NCBI GenBank assembly: GCA_030688545.1
Contig: JAUYHT010000002.1
Location: 210,001 to 242,000, forward strand
DNA length: 32,000 nt
Direction: 5' to 3'
Source: Candidatus Iainarchaeum sp.
Lineage (GTDB): Archaea; Iainarchaeota; Iainarchaeia; Iainarchaeales; VGJJ01
A program made the translations under genes and the position numbers. Every line of letters begins with the position of its first letter. The first letter of the stretch is position 1. Shown here piece by piece: positions 3,719 to 29,505 of the stretch. The notes below the pieces were generated by a model, which had not been told where the DNA came from, did not search any database, and worked only from the letters and a program-made list of their open reading frames with translations.

Positions 3719-3741
3719 GAGCAGGGGGATTGTGTCCTCGT

Positions 3742-4656
3742 ATGCCTCCCATGCGCCCCATTCTCCGTGACATATATCATGTCGGGGTGGCGCTCGTTCT
3801 GGTACTGGTCATCCTGGGTTTAATCACGTGGTCGGGGTTCCTCTCCTGCCGCGACATCCCGGGGTGGTGCGACGTGTATTATGGGATCAAGGGCTCCCCC
3901 AAAACGCTCATCGTTTTCGGGGACGATGGATTAGGCAATCCGGATTGGCTGGCCCAGCAACTGCGCGATCCTAATGGGGCGCACGCGAGCAACCTCTCTC
4001 GGCAACAATTGGATTTCGTTTCCGCCGGAAACCTGAAAGAATTCGATTTGGTAATTGTCACCCGCGCGCGAACCATGCCCACGGAAAAATTAAAGGCCTT
4101 CATGGAATACGCGGACGCGGGAGGAAGGCTCATTTGGACGGGGGACGCGGGAACGGGACTGACGAATGAAGACCAGTTCCTGTACGCTGATGATTTGGAT
4201 GAGAATGCCGGGCACGAGATTTTAACGCCCTGGGCTAGGAAGGATAGTGAAACCAATACCCCCATCCGATTTGACCAATACATTTCAGCCGCCTACCAGG
4301 GGAATTGGTGTGAAGTAAGGGAGTGTGCCATCGAACAACAAGTGGGGTTGCTCGTTCCCGAAACCGGAGCCGACCACCCCCTCATATTTGGGATTGCCAA
4401 TAACCTGAACCTGTACGGGGATTTTTCGCTCGTGCGGGAACTGGGAATAGGCAGCACCATCGTTTTGAGCGTGGACACGCAAACCCTTGTTCGGGACACC
4501 GGAGGAAAGGAATTAGGGCGCGTATTCCCGCTCATCATCACTTCTGGAGTGGGGGAGAAAATAGTCTACTACGCCGTGCCCCCGGAGTACTATGGCGCTC
4601 CCCCCATGACCTATAAGCTGCTCCTCGAGAACTTGTACGTGGGGATGCTGCGATGA
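3742..4656 (+). CDS. Membrane-anchored protein, paralog of 5342-6313 (possible class I glutamine-amidotransferase-like/ThuA-like fold)
   Basis: It has an N-terminal TM (VALVLVLVILGLITW). The strand/helix pattern is TLIVFGDD...FDLVIVTR...FMEYADAGGRLIWTGDAG. The C-terminal blocks DHPLIFGI and FPLIITSG..KIVYYAVPP are mirrored in the paralog. The ORF track starts at TTG 3730, and ATG 3742 fits the TATA spacing better. Confidence 0.6.
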   Translation: MPPMRPILRDIYHVGVALVLVLVILGLITWSGFLSCRDIPGWCDVYYGIKGSPKTLIVFGDDGLGNPDWLAQQLRDPNGAHASNLSRQQLDFVSAGNLKEFDLVIVTRARTMPTEKLKAFMEYADAGGRLIWTGDAGTGLTNEDQFLYADDLDENAGHEILTPWARKDSETNTPIRFDQYISAAYQGNWCEVRECAIEQQVGLLVPETGADHPLIFGIANNLNLYGDFSLVRELGIGSTIVLSVDTQTLVRDTGGKELGRVFPLIITSGVGEKIVYYAVPPEYYGAPPMTYKLLLENLYVGMLR

Positions 4657-5345
4657 GCCCCCAAGTGGAACGGTTCAACAATCGGTTAAAACGAAATTCC
4701 AAAGTGGTTATCCTTCGACGGCACCTGAACCCTTCATTTAGAATAGAAAATGGAGAAATTAATGAAATTCGCGCGGCACGTGTCTCAGGACCAATTCTTA
4801 TATCACCCTTTTATGCTGGGGGTGATCCTAAAAATTATCCAGCCAAATTAGCTATATCTATCGCGTTTGTGTTATCTGCTAATCCATTTATAGCACAAAT
4901 TATCCAACGATTTTATTCCGAACTACCCCTGGATCAACCCATCATCATGCCCCCCTTCGAACGCTTTTATCCGGAAGGATGGATTCAGGCCAGCCGCATC
5001 AAGGAAACCCACCCCATCTATTATGTGGATATGAAAGGAAACCTTGTTTTCGTCAAAAATTCGCGAATGGAATATTTCCGCTATCTCTTTCAGAAATCCC
5101 TGCTCGGAAGATTGGGATATAATCCCTGGTGGTGGCGGGGATACATCGAGCCTCCTAAAGCACCGGAACCGGTTAAGAAGTGGGCTAAGGAGCAATTACG
5201 CAAATTGATGGAAAAAATTCCCAGAAAACCGGTACTAAAACCATCCCTCGTTCCTGTTCATTTTCGTCGTTCTGATCCTAAGTTTCAGGACAATTCTTCA
5301 TCCAGACGACCCAAAAGGATGCGGCGTGGATCACGAGGGAGATGA
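4653..5345 (+). CDS. Hypothetical protein with very basic C-terminal tail
   Basis: 230-aa ORF with ATGA overlaps to both neighbours. The first third is visibly AT-rich. No family recognised. Confidence 0.5.
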   Translation: MSPQVERFNNRLKRNSKVVILRRHLNPSFRIENGEINEIRAARVSGPILISPFYAGGDPKNYPAKLAISIAFVLSANPFIAQIIQRFYSELPLDQPIIMPPFERFYPEGWIQASRIKETHPIYYVDMKGNLVFVKNSRMEYFRYLFQKSLLGRLGYNPWWWRGYIEPPKAPEPVKKWAKEQLRKLMEKIPRKPVLKPSLVPVHFRRSDPKFQDNSSSRRPKRMRRGSRGR

Positions 5346-6313
5346 CCTATTTCCCACCCCCCACCCAATTGTTTATAAAGGAGTTAACGTCTTTACCTGC
5401 CAGGACACCCATCTGGGTTATTGGGGAAAATATCTATAGTGAGGAGGAAACACGCATGGCTTACGAGGACGAGGGCGCGGAATTGCCCCCACTGGACGGG
5501 GGTTCTTTCAGCTCCAAACTGCATTTCAATCTGGAAGCCTTGATCCCCATCATCCTTATCGTCATCATCGGATTCCTCCTCCTCGCCCGATTGGGAGTGG
5601 TTGATTCATCTACTCCCATCCTGGGACCGGTGGTGGGTTTCATTTCCCCTAATGCCACTGCCCGCGTGCTCATTGTAGGCGCCCCATCACCTGAACTGAT
5701 GGCCGTGCTCAATGCCAATAAAGACTTGGTGGGCAATCCAATTGTTAGAGTGGCGGAAGCCTTCGCGCGGGACCCCAGCAACCAATTGGCGCAATTCGAC
5801 ATCGTGATCATGGATCAATCCGGGCAACTCTCAAAAGAGATTCCCCGACAACTTGGGGATGCGCTCCAAGACTATGTGAAAACCGGAGGAAAACTCATCA
5901 TCATCCAAAATTCAGGGATTCAGCGCCCGGGGGCATTAGACATCTTAGGTTGGAAGGCCAACTTTGGGAATATCGTGCCGGTGAACTGCGACATCATATT
6001 GGATGGACAACCCACCTGCAAACGACCCATCGCCGTGGTGGGGGTTATCTGGCGGCAGGACTTCAAACATCCCATCATGCTGGGCATCGAACGCGTGCCC
6101 GCGGAAGCCGAAGCGGGCTACTTGCTCCTGGAAACCTATGACATCGGGGTCACCGGAAACGAGATAGCGTACATTGAAGACGCCCGCACGGGACAGAATT
6201 TCCCGGCCATCGTCGAACACGCTCAGCTCGGCGGAGGAAAGGTCATCTATTTCAATTACAATCCCGGCATCACTGCGGGCATACTTGAAAATACGATTAA
6301 ATACCTGCGTTGA
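5342..6313 (+). CDS. Membrane-anchored protein, paralog of 3742-4656
   Basis: It has a TM (LIPIILIVIIGFLLLARLGVV). It also has ARVLIVGA...FDIVIMDQ...YVKTGGKLIIIQNSG, KHPIMLGI and FPAIVEHAQLGGGKVIYFNYNPG, collinear with the first gene of the operon. Confidence 0.65.
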   Translation: MTYFPPPTQLFIKELTSLPARTPIWVIGENIYSEEETRMAYEDEGAELPPLDGGSFSSKLHFNLEALIPIILIVIIGFLLLARLGVVDSSTPILGPVVGFISPNATARVLIVGAPSPELMAVLNANKDLVGNPIVRVAEAFARDPSNQLAQFDIVIMDQSGQLSKEIPRQLGDALQDYVKTGGKLIIIQNSGIQRPGALDILGWKANFGNIVPVNCDIILDGQPTCKRPIAVVGVIWRQDFKHPIMLGIERVPAEAEAGYLLLETYDIGVTGNEIAYIEDARTGQNFPAIVEHAQLGGGKVIYFNYNPGITAGILENTIKYLR

Positions 6314-14644: not shown

Positions 14645-14728
14645 GCAGGGGTACCGAAGTGGACAAACGGAACGCGTTTAGGCCGCGTTGGCTTAGTGCC
14701 TTCGGAGGTTCGAATCCTCCCTCCTGCA
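14645..14728 (+). tRNA. tRNA-Leu (anticodon UAG), type II with long variable arm
   Basis: Hand fold: GCAGGGG TA CCGAAGTGGACAAACGG A ACGCG TTTAGGC CGCGT TGGCTTAGTGCCTTC GGAGG TTCGAAT CCTCC CTCCTGC A. Confidence 0.9.
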
Positions 14729-14819
14729 TGCCCAAATTCCATTTGGGCGTTCGGAATTAGGGAGGTTTCACAGAAACCTCCCGGCTAACTAGTTTTCGCC
14801 AACCTTTTCCCAAAAGGTT

Positions 14820-14843
14820 GGTTCTGAATCCTCCCTCCTGCAT
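14820..14843 (+). pseudogene. Duplicate of the tRNA-Leu(UAG) T-loop/3' acceptor end
   Basis: GGTTC-T-GAATCCTCCCTCCTGCAT matches tRNA GGTTCGAATCCTCCCTCCTGCAT (14707-14729). There is an 18-nt exact match plus a 1-nt insertion in the T-loop. No partner 5' strand is present. Confidence 0.7.
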
Positions 14844-14979
14844 CGAGGGTCTTGTTCCTCGATCCCGCTCACGTGTTATGTTTTCTGAGGACAGAAAAGT
14901 GTGTGTTTAACCTAATCTTTTAATATCATGCCAAATGGCATTCAATTACAGACATTCATCCTTTATCAGAAAAGGTCCT

Positions 14980-15225
14980 TTAGTCGTATACTCGCGGCCG
15001 CTTGTCTATTTTAGTCACCAAAACTATTTTCTCTGGATGTTTAACTTTGTAAAGAGCGCGATAGCCCCCAATCCTGAAGCGATGAACGGGTTCGCCGTTA
15101 TCCCTGGTAATAAATTTTGAATCTGAAGGAAATGGATCTTCAGATAGACGTTTTAGCCTTTCAATAATACGTTCTCGAAGATGTTTGTCTAACTTATCAA
15201 GAAACTTTTCCGCATGCTGCGACAA
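14980..15225 (-). CDS. RelE/ParE-family toxin
   Basis: It has FRIGGYRALYKVKHPEKIVLVTKIDKRPRVY, the RIGDYRxIY...HR..vY pattern. The listed start is TTG. The in-frame upstream residues IYAVH suggest the true start may be a few codons earlier. Confidence 0.8.
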   Translation of the reverse strand: MSQHAEKFLDKLDKHLRERIIERLKRLSEDPFPSDSKFITRDNGEPVHRFRIGGYRALYKVKHPEKIVLVTKIDKRPRVYD

Positions 15226-15241
15226 ATGAACAGCATAGATA

Positions 15242-15415
15242 CTATATCAGCCTCTTTGTCTTTCCTACTTTCAAATCTTTTTCAGCTTCCTTAATAGACT
15301 CTACATCATCATCAGTTAATACCAGATCAAAATCTACCAAGCGTCCTTTAATGAAGTCTAAGTCGCTACGAATATTTTTGAGTTCTTTCAAAATCGCCTT
15401 CGTTTCCGTTTCCAT
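15242..15415 (-). CDS. Small antitoxin partner of the RelE-like toxin
   Basis: 57 aa from ATG 15415 (METETKAILKELKNIRSDL...). A TTTTTTAAG box lies 27 nt upstream, and the stop lies 16 nt before the toxin start. Confidence 0.6.
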   Translation of the reverse strand: METETKAILKELKNIRSDLDFIKGRLVDFDLVLTDDDVESIKEAEKDLKVGKTKRLI

Positions 15416-15575
15416 AATAATTATCTCATACTTTTGACTTAAAAAACTATACACCAAAAAGACCTTTTCAGACTGATTTTATTAGGTTGTTTTGAAGCTT
15501 TATCTCACCATTTTTTCATTATTGTAAAATAACCCCCCTGACGATGGAAGTAATTAAATTCCTGAAATACTTCTG

Positions 15576-16205
15576 ATGTCCATGGCCGCTGATCAAACCA
15601 ATGCTGCGAATCAATTCATAACTAAAAATATGAAAACGATCGAAATGGCCGCTTTTTATGTTCGAAAACAATTATCTTCATTCAGGTTAACCAAAGAAGA
15701 CCTAATCAGCATGATTACATTGAAGATTATTCGAAATTTCACTTTTGTTGCCGATAGAGGCACACCAAAGGCTTACATTTTTATTATTGCCAGACATCTC
15801 ATAGTCGATACTTTACGTAAGAAAAGAATACGCATTAAACCAACATCATTCTCAAATATCGCAACCGATATTAGCTTGGAAGACCAATTCGAAACAAAAA
15901 AAGAAAGCGGATTGGATCCGGAAACACGAGATTGGTTGATTCAAAATATTATGCAACTACCATATCCACATCGCACCGTATTATTATTGAAATACGAAGG
16001 GATGACTAATGTGGCTATCGCCCGCCACCTTGGCATCCGGGTGAATCCAATAGCCAAGGGATACCATCTTGTGAAAAAAGCACATCAAATATTGCGTGAT
16101 CATTTAGAGAAAAAAAAAGATCCCTTTTTCCTGGACCAACAGAAGCCCCGTAAAAGAAAACCTGGCCCAAAACGATTAGGAAGACCGCGCAAACCTACAA
16201 GATAG
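15576..16205 (+). CDS. ECF-type sigma-70-family-like protein with AT-hook-like basic tail
   Basis: The region-2-like block is KEDLISMITLKIIRNFTFVADRGTPKAYIFIIARHLIVDTLRKKR. The region-4-like block is LPYPHRTVLLLKYEGMTNVAIARHLGIRVNPIAKGYHLVKKAHQILRDHL. The tail is KPRKRKPGPKRLGRPRKPTR. The surrounding DNA is AT-rich. Confidence 0.65.
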   Translation: MSMAADQTNAANQFITKNMKTIEMAAFYVRKQLSSFRLTKEDLISMITLKIIRNFTFVADRGTPKAYIFIIARHLIVDTLRKKRIRIKPTSFSNIATDISLEDQFETKKESGLDPETRDWLIQNIMQLPYPHRTVLLLKYEGMTNVAIARHLGIRVNPIAKGYHLVKKAHQILRDHLEKKKDPFFLDQQKPRKRKPGPKRLGRPRKPTR

Positions 16206-16248
16206 TATTCTTAAATCGTCCCCTTCCCAGTTGAGATGGAATTATGTT

Positions 16249-16322
16249 GCCCGTGTGGTGTAGTCTGGATAGCATAAAGGCTTCCGGAGCCTTTGACCTG
16301 GGTTCAAATCCCAGCACGGGTG
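16249..16322 (+). tRNA. tRNA-Arg (anticodon CCG)
   Basis: Hand fold: GCCCGTG TG GTGT AGTCTGGATA GCAT A AAGGC TTCCGGA GCCTT TGAC CTGGG TTCAAAT CCCAG CACGGGT G. It has a G1-U72 wobble and is followed by a T5 run. Confidence 0.85.
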
Positions 16323-16432
16323 TTTTTAGGGATTTGGAGAAAGGTGTCGCCAATATTGTTCCCTGGGCAATAGAGAGTTTATTCCAACCCCTCACGAGTA
16401 TTCTTTTAATCGTTCGAATATCCCAATAGGGT

Positions 16433-17017
16433 ATGCGTCTGGAAGACCTTTCATTCCAAACCGGAGAAAACGTATACGCCCCCCGGGAAGACTCCTGGCT
16501 GCTAGCTCACGCGATATTGAAAAACAAAAAGATCGTGCGCGGGAAGAAATGCCTCGATATGGGCTGCGGGAGCGGCATCCAGACCGCCGCAATGCTCCTG
16601 GTGGGAGGAAAAGAGGAAACCTATTCGGATATCGCCCCGGAAGCCTTGCACGCAACTGCTTCCTTGGTGGAACGATATTTCCCCAGCGCCAAAACCAAAC
16701 CCGTGCAGGGCGATCTATTCCAGCACGTGAAAGGAACATTTGATGTCATCGCCTTCAACCCCCCCTATGTCCCCTCCACCACCATCCGCTGGCGCGACAC
16801 AGATGGAGGAAAAAAAGGACGTGAAATCATCGATGCGTTTTTGGAAAAACTTGCCGACCACCTGAAACCGGGCGGGCATTGTTTTCTCCTCCAATCCAGC
16901 CTCAACATTCCCGAGATGACCGAACAGAAAATGAAAAAATTGGGAATGACTGGGAAAATCATTGCCACCCAAAAACTCTTCATGGAAGAACTCCAGGTGT
17001 GGCACCTCCAGATCTGA
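16433..17017 (+). CDS. HemK-related/Mtq2-like SAM-dependent methyltransferase
   Basis: It has motif I LDMGCGSGIQT and motif IV FNPPY. A TTCTTTTAAT box lies 27 nt upstream of the ATG. Confidence 0.8.
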   Translation: MRLEDLSFQTGENVYAPREDSWLLAHAILKNKKIVRGKKCLDMGCGSGIQTAAMLLVGGKEETYSDIAPEALHATASLVERYFPSAKTKPVQGDLFQHVKGTFDVIAFNPPYVPSTTIRWRDTDGGKKGREIIDAFLEKLADHLKPGGHCFLLQSSLNIPEMTEQKMKKLGMTGKIIATQKLFMEELQVWHLQI

Positions 17018-17031
17018 TCCTGTTAGAAACG

Positions 17032-18093
17032 TCAGGGGGTTCCAATGTCTACACAGCAGCCCATAATGCAGACTGGGTGGCCTTGACCAGAACCTCCGAA
17101 ACCGCAATCCTGATTGGTGGTGCAGCCGGGAGGACATCTGCTTCGGCAAGGCTCCGGGTTGGGGACGCACTGGCACCCCGCGCACACATATCCCGAAGAA
17201 ACCGTCGTCCCATCTGGACAAACGACTCCAAACGTCCCGGAACCCGCGCAATCGCTATCCGCCTCGCACACCTCGTTGTTCCCCGGATCCAAAACCCCAT
17301 TCCCGCAGAAGCCCATACCCTGATAGATGGAGATATCCGATACCCCATCACAAGGAGCGGTGGGAAAGCATTTCAGACCCGCATCCCCTACTAGATTACC
17401 ATTAGGTCCGGAAGGGCCGCCATTCCTCGAACAATCGGGATTGCATGTACCATCCTGGCATAAAATAGTTCCGGGAGAGCATGATCCTGTATCACAATAC
17501 TGGCAGAAAGAGATATCGAACCCCGTGCACGCGTTATTGCAACCCAATTCCCCATTGCACAATTGGATCCCTCCCTCGGTGTAGAAATCCGTGCAATCCA
17601 ACCAATCCCCAAGATTCGTCAAATCGCAGGCTTCTGTGATGCCCCCGCTCGCGGAACCATCCTCGATTCGATAATCGCCACAATATTGGTAGGTGAAGGT
17701 GGTGTATCCTCCTGTACGGGCACATACGACCTCAGCGATAACAAATTCATTGGGGTCATTTTCCAATCTCCCATTGAAGCAGCTCCATCCCCGAAGGTCA
17801 GGGAGGACCCCGGAGAGATTGTATTGGTAGCCACTATCATTAGGAAAATCCACCTCAGTGCTGCATGAACCGCTGATCGCGTAAAAATCCGTGGGACACA
17901 CCGCTTCGCAAAACTTATACCGTGCACCCGAGGATCCATCACATGCCTGGGTGATGGTAATAATATCGTCTTCTATTTCCTCGGCTGAATGACCGAAAAA
18001 AATAGCTTGACCCGCGGCCAGAGCCAAGGTTACCAAAAATAGGATAACGATTCCCGACATGGGCCATTTGAAAATTTGAAACCAATATTTCAT
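17032..18093 (-). CDS. Membrane-anchored cysteine-rich surface protein (six-Cys module plus long Cys-rich extension)
   Basis: It has an N-terminal TM (IVILFLVTLALAAG) and the GHSAEEI...six-Cys module shared with the two upstream genes. The tail has many Cys, including YCGDYRIEDG...EACD and FCGNGVLDPGNNEVCEADSDC units. Confidence 0.7.
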   Translation of the reverse strand: MKYWFQIFKWPMSGIVILFLVTLALAAGQAIFFGHSAEEIEDDIITITQACDGSSGARYKFCEAVCPTDFYAISGSCSTEVDFPNDSGYQYNLSGVLPDLRGWSCFNGRLENDPNEFVIAEVVCARTGGYTTFTYQYCGDYRIEDGSASGGITEACDLTNLGDWLDCTDFYTEGGIQLCNGELGCNNACTGFDISFCQYCDTGSCSPGTILCQDGTCNPDCSRNGGPSGPNGNLVGDAGLKCFPTAPCDGVSDISIYQGMGFCGNGVLDPGNNEVCEADSDCAGSGTFGVVCPDGTTVSSGYVCAGCQCVPNPEPCRSRCPPGCTTNQDCGFGGSGQGHPVCIMGCCVDIGTP

Positions 18094-18482
18094 GGACTCA
18101 CCTTCAAACAGATTACCTGCGCCCTCAAGAAGCTACTCGGGCCATGGGAGCCATCCGAACACTCCCAAAATTTTTGATTCGTGGACGCATCAGTAAGACC
18201 AAAGGCCTGGTACGCATAGCCAGTGAAAGAAATACAATTGCCACCGACCGCGACTTCGTCCGGCAGGATACAAGTAGCACGGCAGGGATTCCCGGCACCC
18301 GATGCATACCCTTGGAAATTGGTGCAATCCGTATCATATACAACGGTTTTCAATGCGATTTCATCTGGAGAATGCCCGAAGATCCGGGGGATATTAGTGC
18401 CATAAGCGGCAATCACCACTGCCAAAGCCACAACCAATACCCCCACTAAATGCCAACGCATGGCCGCGGGCGAATAAACCAT
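18090..18482 (-). CDS. Membrane-anchored six-Cys module protein (paralog)
   Basis: It has a TM (LVGVLVVALAVVIAAYG) followed by GHSPDEI...DC...PCRATC...EVAVGGNC...WEC...AQVIC. It overlaps the next gene by ATGA. Confidence 0.65.
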   Translation of the reverse strand: MVYSPAAMRWHLVGVLVVALAVVIAAYGTNIPRIFGHSPDEIALKTVVYDTDCTNFQGYASGAGNPCRATCILPDEVAVGGNCISFTGYAYQAFGLTDASTNQKFWECSDGSHGPSSFLRAQVICLKVSP

Positions 18483-18899
18483 TTAATTGACCTCCATGCA
18501 CTTTACTTCCGCGATGAATTTCCCGTTAAGATATCCAACGGTCGGCCAAGACAAATCCGTGCATTCCCACCGATAATAAGAAGAAATCCCCATCTTCCAA
18601 TAAACCCACCCCGCCCCATTGATGCAATTTCCACCCACGGCAACCTCATTTCCCAATTGGCAATCCGCATAGCACTGCGGGAAATTACTTCCAGAGCAAT
18701 CCACCTGGTATGAATTGAACGTATATTCTATTTCATTTGAGGGGTGACCCATTTTAGCGGGATCGCTGTTTCCGCAAAAAGGGTTATTGGGGTCTGGACA
18801 ATACCCCTGCACTAATACCATTATTCCGACCATCCCCAATCCAATCAAGATGATGGATGGGAGTATTGGGGATTTCAAAAAGAAGGGAATTTCCATCAT
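18483..18899 (-). CDS. Membrane-anchored six-Cys module protein (paralog)
   Basis: It has a TM (ILPSIILIGLGMVGIMVLV) followed by GHPSNEI...DC...QCYADC...EVAVGGNC...WEC...AEVKC. ATG 18899 is preferred over TTG 18920 because a TTTTTAATT box lies about 28 nt upstream. Confidence 0.65.
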   Translation of the reverse strand: MMEIPFFLKSPILPSIILIGLGMVGIMVLVQGYCPDPNNPFCGNSDPAKMGHPSNEIEYTFNSYQVDCSGSNFPQCYADCQLGNEVAVGGNCINGAGWVYWKMGISSYYRWECTDLSWPTVGYLNGKFIAEVKCMEVN

Positions 18900-19055
18900 A
18901 CCGGGGACACGAATCCCCAATTAAAAACCGCTGCCTGTAAACGTTATCAAACCCTTTAAATGCCCTCTGGGATCCTATTCCGACAGACCTACTATGGGAT
19001 CAAAGGAAGAGATTCCAATTGTCACCTCAAAATAACACCTCATGATGCGATTGAA

Positions 19056-19139
19056 GCACGGATACCCAAGCGGTCTAAGGGGCCAGGTTCAGAACCTGGT
19101 GGCTTAGTGCCTTCGGAGGTTCGAATCCTCCTCCGTGCA
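19056..19139 (+). tRNA. tRNA-Leu (anticodon CAG), type II
   Basis: Hand fold: GCACGGA TA CCCAAGCGGTCTAAGGG G CCAGG TTCAGAA CCTGG TGGCTTAGTGCCTTC GGAGG TTCGAAT CCTCC TCCGTGC A. The variable and T arms are identical to those of tRNA-Leu(UAG). Confidence 0.9.
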
Positions 19140-19262
19140 TGGCCCGTTCCGTCGGGCCGCTGCGGAGTTAGGGCTCCCTAGCAGGAGCCCAGACAAAAAG
19201 AATCGAAATGGCCTAATTGGCCACTCTCTCGGGGTATTTTTGTATTCGAATAAAAAAAATAA

Positions 19263-19290
19263 TTGAAGCAGGTTTCCAAACCTGCTTCAA
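19263..19290. terminator. 13-bp inverted repeat TTGAAGCAGGTTT-CC-AAACCTGCTTCAA with adjacent A8/T8 run
   Basis: Read directly. It overlaps the stop of the minus-strand lipoprotein gene. On the minus strand the hairpin is followed by a T-run, which looks like an intrinsic terminator. Confidence 0.5.
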
Positions 19291-19820
19291 GAGAAATCGA
19301 AAACAGTATCTTTTACGGCCATATACGTTTTCCCATCATATATAAAATCGATTTCTAGATAAACCGTGCTATCTGGTACGAATCCCTCATCGAATTCCAA
19401 CCTTATTTCTTTTCCGAGAAATCCGTAATCCGAATCGATAACGATGTTATTCCATTCTTTGATAAGATCCGTTTTTACTGTTTTGAATTTCGAGTCATAA
19501 TCTGAATCATAAACCCTGGCATTCAATAGTCCCTCGGCTCGGACTAATTTCCCTTCTTTATTTTCAGGTTGAATAGTAACCTTGATTCCATCCACCTCTG
19601 GATCGGCATCCCAGTTATCCATAGACGCGGACCAGATTGATAATGTCGAGACTTCAGGTTTAGATTCCTGCTTAGACGGTGCAGAGGCTTGAGACACCGT
19701 ATCGTTTTCTCCACTTGAAGCCGTATTTTCAGTGTCAGAATAGGTTGGTTTACTTGTGCACCCGGCAAGGAATAACATCGCGACCAATAATACCCCAACA
19801 TAAATTTTGAATTGACTCAT
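19287..19820 (-). CDS. Putative lipoprotein
   Basis: It starts at MSQFKIYVGVLLVAMLFLAGC, with a lipobox-like LAGC. A strong GGAGG motif lies 8 nt upstream of ATG 19820. The DNA is AT-rich. Confidence 0.7.
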   Translation of the reverse strand: MSQFKIYVGVLLVAMLFLAGCTSKPTYSDTENTASSGENDTVSQASAPSKQESKPEVSTLSIWSASMDNWDADPEVDGIKVTIQPENKEGKLVRAEGLLNARVYDSDYDSKFKTVKTDLIKEWNNIVIDSDYGFLGKEIRLEFDEGFVPDSTVYLEIDFIYDGKTYMAVKDTVFDFS

Positions 19821-19870
19821 TTTTTCTCCTCCTTTTTTCCACCCCATCACAGGCTCATTAGATTTTATTT

Positions 19871-20257
19871 TCATTTTTCATCCTTCACCTTATTCTTTTT
19901 TTTAAATTCAATATTTCCTTTTTCAGATAGGACTTCTTTACGTTCTTCGTATTCCTCTTTGGTTATTTCCCCATCTGCATATTTTCGTTTCAATACGATC
20001 AGCGGTGATTCAATGCTTGTAGTAGCAGGCGTGTTGTTGACAACAGTGACCTGCTGGATCTGTTGGGTTACCCCCGCCACGATTTTTGCTGGATCTTCAG
20101 CTAATGTAGCAATTTTCCATGTTTTACCAAACATCCACAAACCAACCGGAAGTCCAATAATGGTTAGGCAGGCTATCAAGGCTAATATGACCCAAAGCAA
20201 GGCCACCCACCATCCAATTAAAATAAACCAAATAACCCGGACTACCGTACTTGCCAT
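19871..20257 (-). CDS. YccF-like (DUF307) membrane domain fused to a SHOCT-like C-terminal motif
   Basis: It has IWFILIGWWVALLWVILALIACLTIIGLPVGLWMF, followed by LKRKYADGEITKEEYEERKEVL. Confidence 0.65.
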   Translation of the reverse strand: MASTVVRVIWFILIGWWVALLWVILALIACLTIIGLPVGLWMFGKTWKIATLAEDPAKIVAGVTQQIQQVTVVNNTPATTSIESPLIVLKRKYADGEITKEEYEERKEVLSEKGNIEFKKKNKVKDEK

Positions 20258-20354
20258 TCCCTGGACACCTCGTAAGCCCAGAATACCTCAATAGTATATA
20301 ATCCTACGCTCATTCTAACGCCGCTATTTAACTCCATAAAAAGCCGTTCCCAGA

Positions 20355-24763: not shown

Positions 24764-26038
24764 ATGGCCGCATCCCACCCCCAGCAGGAGCGCATCGAGG
24801 AAAACCCATCTTCCACTCCACCCAAATCCTCTCCGCTCCAAACTTATTCTCCCTCCCCCACCCCATCAACCACCTCTCCACCCTCCCCGACTCAACCCAT
24901 TAACCCTCCACCCGACCCAAATCCTTCAGTCCCCCCACTCCCCCATTCTCCGCATCGGGCGCTCATCATCGGGGGAATTCTCATCCTTCTCATTCTCATT
25001 GTGGGGGTGTTAGTGTACACCAAGTTTGTGTCCCCTCCAACTAATGGAGTGCCGGATGACCTAACCATGGTCCAGGTCCGGGTGGTGGTGGATGACGCCT
25101 GCGATTTTTGCCTGCAGACGAATACTATTCTCGCCAAGCTGGATGAATCCAATATCCGCTACACCACCGAAACCATTAGCCTGCACAGCCCGGAAGGAAA
25201 ACAGTTGGTCGCTGATTTCGACATCCCCTACGCCCCCACGGCCCTCATCAGTGTCGCGGGTCTGGATCAGAACATCCAGATTCAGGCCGCCCTCCAGGGA
25301 CGTTTTATTCGGAACCCCTTTCGCATTGTGAATGGGTTTGTGGTGGCGCCCGAACAATATCTCACCAACCAAGCTTTCCCAGTTACGTATACTAGCCCCC
25401 CCACCGCCTGCTCCTCATCTCCAGGAAAAATTCCCTTACGCGCCTATCTGGACTTCGGGGAATGCACTCCTTGTGTAGAGGCCTACTTGGTTACCCAGCG
25501 GTTGGAAACCAAATACCCTGCATTGGATGTTGAAATAACGCCCATCATGTTTGGTTTCCCCCGCACCCCCGCGCAAGCGGCCGCGGCCTTCGTGAGCAAC
25601 AAGGGAGCGGTTTGCACCCAAGAAATGGGATTCTTCGAGGATTACCAGGAATGCCATTTCTTTGACTCCCAATTCTATGGAAGCTTGGACCTCAACCGCA
25701 TGCTCGCCTGTCTGAGTGACGCAGGAGGAAAAAGCCAGGAGACCAAATCCCAATTCCAAACCTGCGTAGGAGATGCGGATGGAAAAGCGGAACAACGACT
25801 CGTGGTCCAGACGAAAGAATCCCAGGCCTGGAACCCATCCCCCTGGGTGACGCCCTGGTTTGTATTGGACTGCACCTACGCGTTCACGGGTCACAATGCC
25901 ATAGAAGCTTACCTCTGTTCTACCCACCCCGAACTGGAAGGATGCACAGCCATTCTAGATGCCCTCTCCATGGATGTCAATGCGGCCAATGACCTGAGTG
26001 AACCGGACACCAACAAAAGCCAGCCCCTCGCGGAATGA
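24764..26038 (+). CDS. Membrane-anchored protein with two CxxC thioredoxin-fold modules (second DsbA-like)
   Basis: It has a Pro/Ser/Thr-rich N-terminal tail and a TM (ALIIGGILILLILIVGVLVY). Module 1 has VVVDDACDFC...IPYAPTALI. Module 2 has LDFGECTPC...an inserted helical region...VTPWFVLD. Confidence 0.65.
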   Translation: MAASHPQQERIEENPSSTPPKSSPLQTYSPSPTPSTTSPPSPTQPINPPPDPNPSVPPLPHSPHRALIIGGILILLILIVGVLVYTKFVSPPTNGVPDDLTMVQVRVVVDDACDFCLQTNTILAKLDESNIRYTTETISLHSPEGKQLVADFDIPYAPTALISVAGLDQNIQIQAALQGRFIRNPFRIVNGFVVAPEQYLTNQAFPVTYTSPPTACSSSPGKIPLRAYLDFGECTPCVEAYLVTQRLETKYPALDVEITPIMFGFPRTPAQAAAAFVSNKGAVCTQEMGFFEDYQECHFFDSQFYGSLDLNRMLACLSDAGGKSQETKSQFQTCVGDADGKAEQRLVVQTKESQAWNPSPWVTPWFVLDCTYAFTGHNAIEAYLCSTHPELEGCTAILDALSMDVNAANDLSEPDTNKSQPLAE

Positions 26039-28212: not shown

Positions 28213-29505
28213 TTACCTTCCCACGCGCCCTTTCAAATATTTCCAGCCGAACCGGATGAGCAAAAGGAGGGCGATCCCTCCTAAGAGGTAGGCGAGGCCG
28301 GTGATGATATTCTGGGATAAGACGTCATTCTCCGCATCCGGGTTGAATACGCCAGCTACGTGTATTTTTTTTACCAGGGCTTTGGCGGCGGGAACATTTG
28401 AATTAACTCCTGCATATTGGCGCTGGTCAAATTGGTTTTGAATCAGGGCCCAGGATTTGTCTAACGCGGCCACGCTGGTTTGATCAACCCAATAGGGTTT
28501 GACATCCTCACGCAGGATGAAGGTGGCCGCTTCCTGGAGGGAAATGAACCCAGTGGTGTTCTGGAGGGATGTGTCTTCTCCGTGGATGGAAGTATAAGCC
28601 TCTTTCCTAAACAGACGGGTCTCGAGTTCGGCATCGAACGCCGCCACGCGCGTGGGAATGGCTATAGTTTCTGCTCCAAAACGCTGGGCATTGTCAGCGG
28701 CGATGGCCGCATAGGGAGAAATAGCTGACCCCAATGTCTGGTTGGCTGAAAGAGGGGATATGAGGGCAATGAACTGGGATTTCTCATCCACGCTTAATCC
28801 TTCAGCAGTGGCAATCGCATTCTTGACCTGGGATACCTCCCCATCATACGTCCCCGCCGCATCCTTGAGGGCGTTCAAGCGGGAAAACACATTCCCATAT
28901 TCATCCGGCAATCGTAACACTTCCTGGGTGTCAATGGTCACTCCCAAAAAAACAGCTTCCTTTCCCGAGAGTAAACGGATATCTTGGGCCCCCTGCCTCA
29001 ATTCATTTGACAGATCATCCAGTTTGGGCCGGAGCGCGGCCACTTTGGGTTTCAGGGAATTATCATCAATGGAATCCCGCACCACCTCCACGTCGAAACG
29101 CTCATTCTCCACCGCGTTGGCCAACTCCTCCAGCTTGGAGGCCGTGGTTAGGGAAATAGTCCACTGCGAGGAACTCTTTAGGAAATCAATCCGTTGCACC
29201 CACCATTGAGCGGATAAGAGGTCGGAGCGGAGATTACTTTGAGGAACAATCTCCCCATCTTTGTCGCCTATGGGAATGAGGGTGCGTATTCCGTCATTCT
29301 CATACACCCCCACCACCCAATACTTGGCGCTCCCATTCGTCTGGGAAAGCGCCTTGAACACCGCGGCCCGCTCACCGGGTTCAAGATAATGGCCATTCAC
29401 CACTATGTTTTCAGCATCCAAGGCCTGCAACCCCCACGCTCCAGAAGCCGAAATGATGAACACGGCCATGAGAATGGCATGGAATGCGGTAGCCCCCCCT
29501 TTCAT
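28213..29505 (-). CDS. Type I membrane/surface protein of unknown function
   Basis: It has a signal-like N-terminus (FHAILMAVFIISASGAWG) and a C-terminal TM plus basic tail (GLAYLLGGIALLLLIRFGWKYLKGRVGR). Confidence 0.6.
   Translation of the reverse strand: MKGGATAFHAILMAVFIISASGAWGLQALDAENIVVNGHYLEPGERAAVFKALSQTNGSAKYWVVGVYENDGIRTLIPIGDKDGEIVPQSNLRSDLLSAQWWVQRIDFLKSSSQWTISLTTASKLEELANAVENERFDVEVVRDSIDDNSLKPKVAALRPKLDDLSNELRQGAQDIRLLSGKEAVFLGVTIDTQEVLRLPDEYGNVFSRLNALKDAAGTYDGEVSQVKNAIATAEGLSVDEKSQFIALISPLSANQTLGSAISPYAAIAADNAQRFGAETIAIPTRVAAFDAELETRLFRKEAYTSIHGEDTSLQNTTGFISLQEAATFILREDVKPYWVDQTSVAALDKSWALIQNQFDQRQYAGVNSNVPAAKALVKKIHVAGVFNPDAENDVLSQNIITGLAYLLGGIALLLLIRFGWKYLKGRVGR

Follow-up and report, generated by a model that had tools for sequence, protein, structure and literature searches.

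An AT-rich islet separates two tRNA genes in an Iainarchaeota genome

The stretch of DNA analyzed here, which we call the window, comprises 32,000 nucleotides of contig JAUYHT010000002.1 (positions 210,001 to 242,000, forward strand) from the Candidatus Iainarchaeum sp. assembly GCA_030688545.1. Between its genes for tRNA-Leu(TAG) and tRNA-Arg(CCG) lies a 1.4-kb islet with three supported genes in two divergent units: a RelE/ParE-type toxin-antitoxin cassette on the minus strand and, on the plus strand, a gene for a 209-amino-acid (aa) protein of the sigma-70 family, of the extracytoplasmic function (ECF) type. Sigma factors define bacterial transcription initiation; archaea use TBP together with TFB. 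An earlier note on this DNA had proposed that the gene was either horizontally acquired from a bacterium or virus and now used as a DNA-binding regulator, or a sign of mis-assembly. The islet, its genes, and its anchors are as follows.

14645 to 14728, plus strand: tRNA-Leu(TAG), left anchor of the insertion site (ARAGORN; Rfam tRNA, 51.6 bits); its place after a 371-aa gene is kept in relatives
14844 to 16247, no strand: AT-rich, lineage-specific islet, delimited by GC content, tetranucleotide deviation, and the absence of its genes in seven syntenic relatives
14980 to 15225, minus strand: RelE/ParE-family toxin gene (PF05016 ParE_toxin; phrog_1213, RelE-like)
15242 to 15415, minus strand: antitoxin gene, 57 aa from ATG; the open reading frame (ORF) is open to a TTG at 15457, and the gene is called on Logan contig L002
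15576 to 16205, plus strand: sigma-70 family (ECF-type) gene, 209 aa (PF04542, TIGR02937, AlphaFold2 model, Foldseek); the NCBI call is 207 aa from 15582
16248 to 16323, plus strand: tRNA-Arg(CCG), right anchor of the insertion site (ARAGORN, Rfam), 42 bp past the sigma stop codon

The region had been described as visibly more AT-rich than its flanks, and GC content and tetranucleotide usage agree with this description. Across positions 14844 to 16247, GC content was 37.5%, compared with 50.5% in the rest of the window; this is the lowest value among all 1,404-bp windows and lies about 3.5 standard deviations under the mean. Along the sequence, GC content dropped from 48 to 57% in the flanks to 33 to 41% at about 14.8 to 16.2 kb. 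Tetranucleotide distance from the rest of the 32 kb likewise reached its maximum at 14844 to 16247. The three islet genes had a GC content at third codon positions (GC3) of 0.35 to 0.36, compared with 0.59 to 0.72 in housekeeping genes. A PADLOC search for defense systems returned no hit, and the islet was rejected as a candidate of that kind.

The islet is absent from syntenic relatives

Seven Iainarchaeota relatives are syntenic at this locus (HemK2 48 to 55% identical), and none of them carries the toxin, antitoxin, or sigma-like gene. The gene order kept in the relatives is GT2, a 274-aa gene, tRNA-Val, a 371-aa gene, tRNA-Leu(TAG), tRNA-Arg(CCG), HemK2, tRNA-Leu(CAG), and RNase HII, with tRNA-Arg(CCG) at this place in four of the seven. 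The gap between tRNA-Leu(TAG) and tRNA-Arg(CCG) measures:

L011: 16 bp
L012: 17 bp
L006: 166 bp
L005: 307 bp
This window: 1519 bp

The islet is thus missing between the two tRNA genes of the relatives, and synteny is otherwise kept. Foreign composition and absence from the seven relatives together bear out the proposal of horizontal acquisition. A HemK2 scan of JGI metagenome contigs for closer relatives with an empty site returned nothing above 51% identity. Because other relatives hold different DNA at the site, the tRNA cluster is a hot spot for variable DNA.

The islet is a sound part of an archaeal contig

The host is an Iainarchaeota/Diapherotrites (DPANN) archaeon; genes of the window encode deoxyhypusine synthase, an archaeal-type ProRS (TIGR00408, 551 bits), HemK2/MTQ2, and a DRG-like GTPase, and the closest HemK2 genes belong to Candidatus Iainarchaeum metagenome-assembled genomes (MAGs). 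The sigma-like protein is 100% identical to a protein (P0001) that NCBI annotates as a sigma-70 family sigma factor and assigns to the MAG of a Candidatus Diapherotrites archaeon.

The sharp drop in GC content, the bacterial type of the gene, and the k-mers that the flanking tRNA genes have in common might suggest that a bacterial fragment was erroneously joined or binned into an archaeal contig. Against this stand two Logan contigs, built with an assembler other than that of the MAG, that match the window at 100% identity: L002 (run SRR13727534, 4431 bp) over 14695 to 19125 and L001 (run SRR26726065) over 15522 to 16788, the independence of the two lying in the assembler and at least one run. 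L002 leads from inside tRNA-Leu(TAG) through a hairpin spacer and the whole islet to tRNA-Arg, HemK2, and tRNA-Leu(CAG). The gene order of the relatives is also kept on both flanks, the toxin-antitoxin cassette within the islet is of DPANN type, and the MAG contig bearing the islet is 418,565 bp long. Because a separately assembled 4.4-kb contig from another run reproduces the locus in full identity, a chimeric join at the islet is very unlikely, and mis-assembly, the second alternative of the earlier note, is contradicted by these data. We regard an artifact of joining or binning as extremely improbable.

The 209-aa protein belongs to the ECF group of the sigma-70 family

The predicted architecture of the sigma-like protein is minimal, with no region 1.1, no sigma3 domain, and a short flexible linker. 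Its parts are as follows, with model confidence given as the predicted local distance difference test score (pLDDT).

15576 to 15836, plus strand: sigma2 domain, residues 1 to 87 (helices with pLDDT 89 to 97; Sigma70_r2 at residues 38 to 84)
15837 to 15917, plus strand: disordered sigma2-sigma4 linker, residues 88 to 114, 27 residues (pLDDT <50 at 94 to 109)
15918 to 16118, plus strand: sigma4 helix-turn-helix domain, residues 115 to 181 (Sigma70_r4_2 at 120 to 157; modeled helices)
16119 to 16202, plus strand: basic C-terminal tail, residues 182 to 209, with the AT-hook-like core G202-R-P-R-K-P207 at 16179 to 16196

Two profiles exceeded their cutoffs and place the protein in the sigma-70/ECF family, as the earlier note had read it by eye: Sigma70_r2 (PF04542; 27.4 bits versus a cutoff of 24, E = 3e-6, residues 38 to 84) and NCBIfam TIGR02937 sigma70-ECF (54.2 bits versus 42.9, E = 1e-14), the latter spanning both domains at residues 10 to 160. 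Of the two regions named in that reading, region 2 therefore stands by its own profile, whereas Sigma70_r4_2 (PF08281; 20 bits, E = 5.5e-4, residues 120 to 157) taken alone fell below its cutoff of 25.7. An AlphaFold2 model built from 70 aligned sequences (mean pLDDT 82.8) predicted an ECF fold with helical sigma2 and sigma4 domains and a tail without regular structure; the sigma4 helices span residues 115 to 126, 130 to 140, 145 to 152, and 161 to 181. When this model was compared with the PDB by Foldseek, the best 13 matches were ECF sigma factors or an ECF-RpoB model (E = 2.5e-5 to 5e-3), among them Mycobacterium tuberculosis SigL and SigH in initiation complexes and BldN. SigL was also the top match of a phmmer search against PDB sequences (E = 3e-4).

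Residue by residue, the protein retains the ECF consensus at 26 of the 39 positions that are conserved at ≥50% in 69 aligned ECF-like proteins. The signature residues E41, D42, A72, R73, D78, and R81 are kept in sigma2, and L128, P129, R133, G142, A149, L152, and G153 are kept in sigma4; departures from the consensus include Q45S, F48T, N74H, E147A, T158P, and R162G. The basic tail reported previously (...KPRKRKPGPKRLGRPRKPTR) is present, with 14 lysine or arginine residues in the last 35 and GRP at residues 202 to 204, and it ends in LGRPRKPTR. None of the 69 other aligned ECF-like proteins combines GRP with such a basic tail. The GRPRKP motif on which an AT-hook-like tail had been proposed is thus confirmed, but no AT_hook profile hit was obtained in a Pfam search at E values up to 1. 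No anti-sigma gene adjoins the sigma-like gene, whose neighbors are tRNA-Arg, 42 bp downstream, and, on the upstream side, the divergent toxin-antitoxin pair.

Such a protein might still be a working sigma factor, one that binds the archaeal polymerase (at the clamp coiled-coil or flap) or the bacterial polymerase of a neighboring cell and redirects transcription. The largely intact signature residues of sigma2 and sigma4, the disordered linker of usual length, and the repeated retention of sigma-70 genes in DPANN would all fit such a role. Archaeal RNA polymerase, however, initiates transcription with TBP, TFB, and TFE, and sigma factors are not known to interact with an archaeal polymerase. 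The protein also has no secretion signal, and two core-binding positions of region 2.2 are altered (Q45S and F48T), the same residues occurring in a minority of bacterial ECF proteins. We consider a working sigma factor very improbable, and the same holds for the more particular idea that the protein competes with or replaces TFB/TFE at AT-rich foreign promoters selected by its AT-hook-like tail, or acts in a partner cell. If polymerase binding were true, sigma-type promoter selection would have crossed a domain boundary.

The toxin-antitoxin cassette is of a DPANN type

Toxin identity rests on PF05016 (E = 7e-8; 33.3 bits versus a cutoff of 23) and phrog_1213, RelE-like (E = 6e-14), and 31 columns are invariant in an alignment with nine homologues. 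The only canonical start codon is a TTG, which gives a product of 81 aa; a look-up of this product returned no called gene. Upstream of it, the frame continues as I-Y-A-V-H (15226 to 15240, minus strand) where the family N terminus reads M-Y-A-V-E, with ATC (15238 to 15240) in place of ATG; the copy in L022, another Diapherotrites MAG, has ATT where ATG is expected (about 2270 to 2285). The toxin could use a noncanonical start codon, or it could be N-terminally shortened in this lineage.

For the antitoxin, the exact 57-aa product was called on Logan contig L002, and the ORF ends 16 nucleotides (nt) ahead of the toxin start. It matched no curated family in Pfam or NCBIfam, and its assignment comes from conserved pairing: L022 and L026 to L035 likewise have an ORF of 57 to 58 aa upstream of the toxin. 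The RelE/antitoxin pair named in the earlier note is therefore upheld, the toxin by PF05016 and PHROG profiles and the antitoxin by its position.

The toxin has 292 homologues, and every named one among the 120 listed comes from a DPANN archaeon. Among the matches listed, identity was 80% in Diapherotrites and 65 to 70% in Woesearchaeota, Nanoarchaeota, Aenigmarchaeota, and Altiarchaeota. The cassette can be aligned at the DNA level with that of L022, where it has purine-biosynthesis genes on one side, a methyltransferase-family gene on the other, and a GC content under that of its flanks; the Woesearchaeota cassettes adjoin an Orc1/Cdc6-type gene. No sigma gene stands beside the cassette in L022 or in ten Woesearchaeota contexts, and the sigma-like gene and the cassette were accordingly rejected as a conserved pair.

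A 25-nt inverted repeat, 80% complementary, was seen at the cassette ends (14966 to 14990 and 15448 to 15472). It was discarded as a feature: chance alone should give roughly 0.6 such pairs in 2 kb, and the repeat is not kept around the L022 cassette.

A tRNA-Leu 3′ repeat lies beside the islet and does not enclose it

The left edge of the islet adjoins a second copy of the tRNA-Leu(TAG) 3′ end, separated from the first by a structured spacer.

14712 to 14729, plus strand: direct repeat copy 1, the tRNA-Leu 3′ end (exact 18-nt repeat)
14730 to 14825, plus strand: spacer of 97 bp with three near-perfect hairpins and normal GC content, between the two repeat copies
14826 to 14843, plus strand: direct repeat copy 2, a partial tRNA-Leu 3′ duplicate (similarity from about 14820 with one indel)

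An exact 18-mer repeated within 2 kb is far beyond chance. With one indel, the match extends to about 23 of 24 nt from position 14820, and copy 2 scores 21 of 25 in alignment, compared with at most 12 for the next best site outside tRNA-Leu genes. Near tRNA-Arg there is no third copy, the best match there scoring 7, which is noise level. The tRNA-Leu 3′-end duplicate of the earlier note thus exists as an exact 18-nt copy, but it does not delimit the islet, and the repeat was ruled out as an islet boundary because no more than 97 bp lie between its copies and a third one is missing.

The stretch from 14729 to 14843 is predicted to fold at −46.1 kcal/mol (z = −5.5), and none of 200 shuffled sequences folded equally well. 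The hairpin spacer may be what is left of an integrated element, or it may be a structured trailer. The trailers of the two tRNA-Leu genes of the window (14729 to 14843 and 19140 to 19200) are alike in that a first hairpin is followed by GGA(A/G)TTAGGG, which opens a second hairpin; the stem sequence of the second hairpin differs between the tRNA-Leu(TAG) and tRNA-Leu(CAG) copies, and its pairing is preserved. Folding of the 61-nt stretch after tRNA-Leu(CAG) gave z = −3.3, compared with −5.5 for the 115 nt after tRNA-Leu(TAG). These trailers could be terminators, processing signals, or element remnants.

The sigma-like protein is an orphan in an archaeal setting

In a word-indexed search of 5.8 billion proteins, the sigma-like protein found only itself. 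An exhaustive phmmer search yielded 85 hits among 1.84 billion representatives at E values up to 1e-3, with a best nonself E value of 1.9e-7 and identities of 24 to 36%. Top hits that carry a name are scattered over bacteria (Clostridia, Flavipsychrobacter, Nitrospina, and Pseudomonadota); one hit is labeled Methanomethylicota and lies on a short contig. Two hits compared for their genomic neighborhood sit in ordinary bacterial ECF loci, next to FecR or LysR genes. No closer relative of the protein was found in GenBank phages (protein and DNA), PLSDB plasmids, or IMG/VR.

Both transcription units of the islet are preceded by a TATA-like box with a putative promoter role.

15438 to 15447, minus strand: TATA-like box GTTTTTTAAG, at −32 to −23 from the antitoxin ATG and kept in the L022 cassette
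15551 to 15559, plus strand: TATA-like box TAATTAAAT, at about −31 to −23 from the second ATG of the sigma-like gene (15582, the NCBI start)

In 20 host upstream regions compared, a TTTTAAAT-like box about 25 to 33 nt ahead of the ATG was typical. Neither the sigma-like gene nor the antitoxin gene has a Shine-Dalgarno sequence. Given the GC3 shared with a DPANN-type cassette, TATA boxes at the host distance, and the lack of Shine-Dalgarno sequences, the immediate source of the islet is more likely to have been the low-GC archaeal (DPANN) mobile gene pool than a bacterium. A direct bacterial or viral donor, one alternative of the earlier note, finds no support, given nearest proteins at 24 to 36% identity, the absence of phage, plasmid, and IMG/VR relatives, the DPANN-type cassette, and the archaeal-style TATA boxes.

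The islet might nonetheless be what remains of a DPANN virus or provirus after insertion at this tRNA cluster, the sigma-like protein then being a viral transcription regulator. The tRNA-adjacent site with its tRNA 3′-end duplicate would suit such an origin, as would PHROG matches of two of the proteins (sigma-like, phrog_1740, E = 1.4e-8; toxin, phrog_1213, E = 6e-14), the presence of phage ECF-like sigma factors among the structural matches, and a report of RpoS-like sigma genes from DPANN viruses, among them a prophage (PMC12647753). Yet the islet contains no integrase, capsid, terminase, or other viral gene, and relatives are lacking in IMG/VR, GenBank phages, and plasmids. The same cassette is found elsewhere among housekeeping genes, and the phage sigma structures match no better than cellular ones. 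We think a viral remnant improbable.

The orphan status of the gene raises a further alternative, namely that it arrived recently as a functionless passenger, is kept by the stabilizing effect of the adjacent toxin-antitoxin cassette, and will decay in time. It occurs in a single lineage and is missing in relatives, it has neither an anti-sigma partner nor a cognate bacterial polymerase, and its composition shows no drift toward that of the host. Other observations are harder to reconcile with cargo of this kind: the 209-codon ORF is intact in DNA of 37% GC, the two-domain model is confident and the ECF signature residues are kept, the TATA box stands at the distance typical of the host, and the sequence is identical in two sequencing runs. 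The recurrence of sigma-70 genes across DPANN genomes (PMC8204110) also speaks against pure accident. We judge silent cargo to be rather unlikely.

Other variable DNA in and around the tRNA cluster

A second AT-rich islet lies directly past tRNA-Leu(CAG) at about 19140 to 20300 (GC 37 to 42%, GC3 0.38 to 0.39) and is not found in any syntenic relative. It holds two genes on the minus strand, one for a 195-aa protein with a signal/lipoprotein-like N terminus (19287 to 19874) and one for a SHOCT/YccF-domain membrane protein (19871 to 20257); a tRNA 3′ duplicate was not found at its far end. From HemK2 to tRNA-Leu(CAG), at 17032 to 18920 on the minus strand, three genes encode cysteine-rich or secreted-looking proteins of 353, 130, and 145 aa that belong to no Pfam family. 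Their homologues, some of them multicopy, occur in L003, L006, and L036. In most other relatives tRNA-Leu(CAG) follows about 50 to 200 bp past HemK2, and the region 17032 to 18920 is a further variable module of the tRNA cluster.

The tRNA-Leu/tRNA-Arg spacers of two relatives contain units of about 90 to 95 nt, three in tandem in L005 (5150 to 5423) and one in L006 (4555 to 4646). Each opens like the 5′ end of tRNA-Arg (GCCCGTGTGGTGyAGTC) and continues with two hairpins; in the second, the TTTTCAA loop is conserved and the stem changes are compensatory. Folding gave z of about −3.1 to −3.6 in three of the four cases, and neither ARAGORN nor Rfam recognizes the units. These units may be a tRNA-derived small RNA. 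Elsewhere in the window, long ORFs of 308, 230, 323, 424, and 430 aa (3730 to 6313, 24764 to 26038, and 28213 to 29505) match no Pfam family at E values up to 1e-3.

The sigma-like protein as a candidate DNA-binding regulator

On balance, we consider it probable that the tRNA-Leu/tRNA-Arg spacer received a horizontally acquired 1.4-kb islet whose orphan ECF-type protein most likely serves as a DNA-binding regulator. A regulatory rather than a sigma function is favored because the host polymerase depends on TBP/TFB and because the protein has no anti-sigma partner. We propose that (i) a low-GC archaeal mobile element would have brought the islet into the spacer between tRNA-Leu(TAG) and tRNA-Arg(CCG), its integrase and outer att site having since been lost; (ii) the addiction-type toxin-antitoxin cassette probably favors retention of the islet; and (iii) the ECF-type protein would have gained a tail rich in lysine, arginine, and proline with an AT-hook-like GRP core. 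The protein might then bind specific DNA sequences through its sigma4 helix-turn-helix together with the minor-groove tail, perhaps at AT-rich foreign DNA that includes its own islet, and would probably not act as a promoter-specificity subunit.

Several points weigh against this interpretation. Neither an integrase nor bracketing repeats are present: no integrase or recombinase is found among the three supported genes with Pfam, NCBIfam, and PHROG profiles, and the islet lies outside the two repeat copies, which enclose 97 bp only. The nearest named proteins are bacterial ECF sigma factors, one of them beside a FecR anti-sigma gene; the family is likely to be of bacterial ultimate origin, and a recent bacterial origin is also possible. 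TATA-like motifs arise easily in DNA of 35% GC. As to function, the AT-hook reading concerns a three-residue core in the context LGRP rather than RGRP (KRLGRPRKP) and has no profile hit; sigma2 and sigma4 show no obvious degeneration of their residues, so that the sequence offers no argument for a loss of polymerase binding. The gene could also be a neutral passenger, no homologue being near enough for a test of purifying selection.

The locus is a compact and clean example, in which the insertion is verified, the empty site is visible, the putative promoter is archaeal in style, no anti-sigma partner is present, and a tail has been added. The comparison with relatives also presents the Iainarchaeota tRNA-Leu/Arg/Leu cluster as a hot spot for small foreign inserts.

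Comparison with known systems

The protein resembles bacterial group IV (ECF) sigma factors such as M. tuberculosis SigL and SigH, Escherichia coli RpoE, and Bacillus subtilis SigW in its sigma2-linker-sigma4 layout and its length of about 200 aa, in the preserved ED...ARxxxxDxxR and LP...R...G...IA..LG signatures, and in its best structural matches, which are ECF proteins in holoenzyme complexes. It differs from them in its location on an archaeal chromosome, in its unique basic GRP tail, in a sigma4 domain that falls below the Pfam cutoff and has recognition-helix changes (T158P and R162G), and in the lack of an adjoining anti-sigma gene. A cognate anti-sigma gene alongside an ECF sigma gene is typical, though not universal. 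The AT-hook of HMGA-type proteins has the core R-G-R-P flanked by basic residues. The tail of the sigma-like protein shares with such AT-hooks a GRP core in a proline- and lysine/arginine-rich segment predicted to be disordered, whereas it reads L-G-R-P, occurs as a single copy, and has no profile hit.

The neighboring cassette corresponds to DPANN type II RelE/ParE cassettes in its toxin (65 to 80% identical), in the 57- to 58-aa antitoxin gene upstream, and in DNA homology with L022; only here does it have a sigma-like neighbor, and its toxin has ATC at the usual start, with TTG five codons on. Like tRNA-associated genomic islands, the islet lies on the 3′ side of a tRNA gene with a partial 3′ duplicate, has an atypical composition, and is missing in relatives. 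Unlike them, it has no integrase, its repeats enclose 97 bp only, and there is no distal repeat; it would be at most a decayed remnant of such an island.

The closest precedent is the set of sigma-70 genes in DPANN genomes, mainly those of Woesearchaeota (fam00359), described by Castelle et al. in 2021 (Front Microbiol 12:660052, PMC8204110), who could rule out mis-binning, did not find anti-sigma factors, and did not settle the function. More recently, rpoS-like genes have been reported in DPANN viruses, a prophage among them (PMC12647753 [2025]). The locus described here is therefore a well-delimited further case of an unexplained class already reported in 2021 and no novel kind of system. 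At the level of the phenomenon it agrees with the fam00359 cases in its archaeal neighbors, its lack of an anti-sigma factor, and the exclusion of mis-binning; it differs in belonging to Iainarchaeota/Diapherotrites, in forming a defined AT-rich insertion beside a toxin-antitoxin cassette, and in having no close relative. It stands out by its orphan sequence, its AT-hook-like tail, and an insertion mappable by comparison with the empty site of relatives, traits that make it a convenient candidate for asking whether such a protein is a DNA-binding regulator, is silent cargo, or has retained contact with a polymerase.

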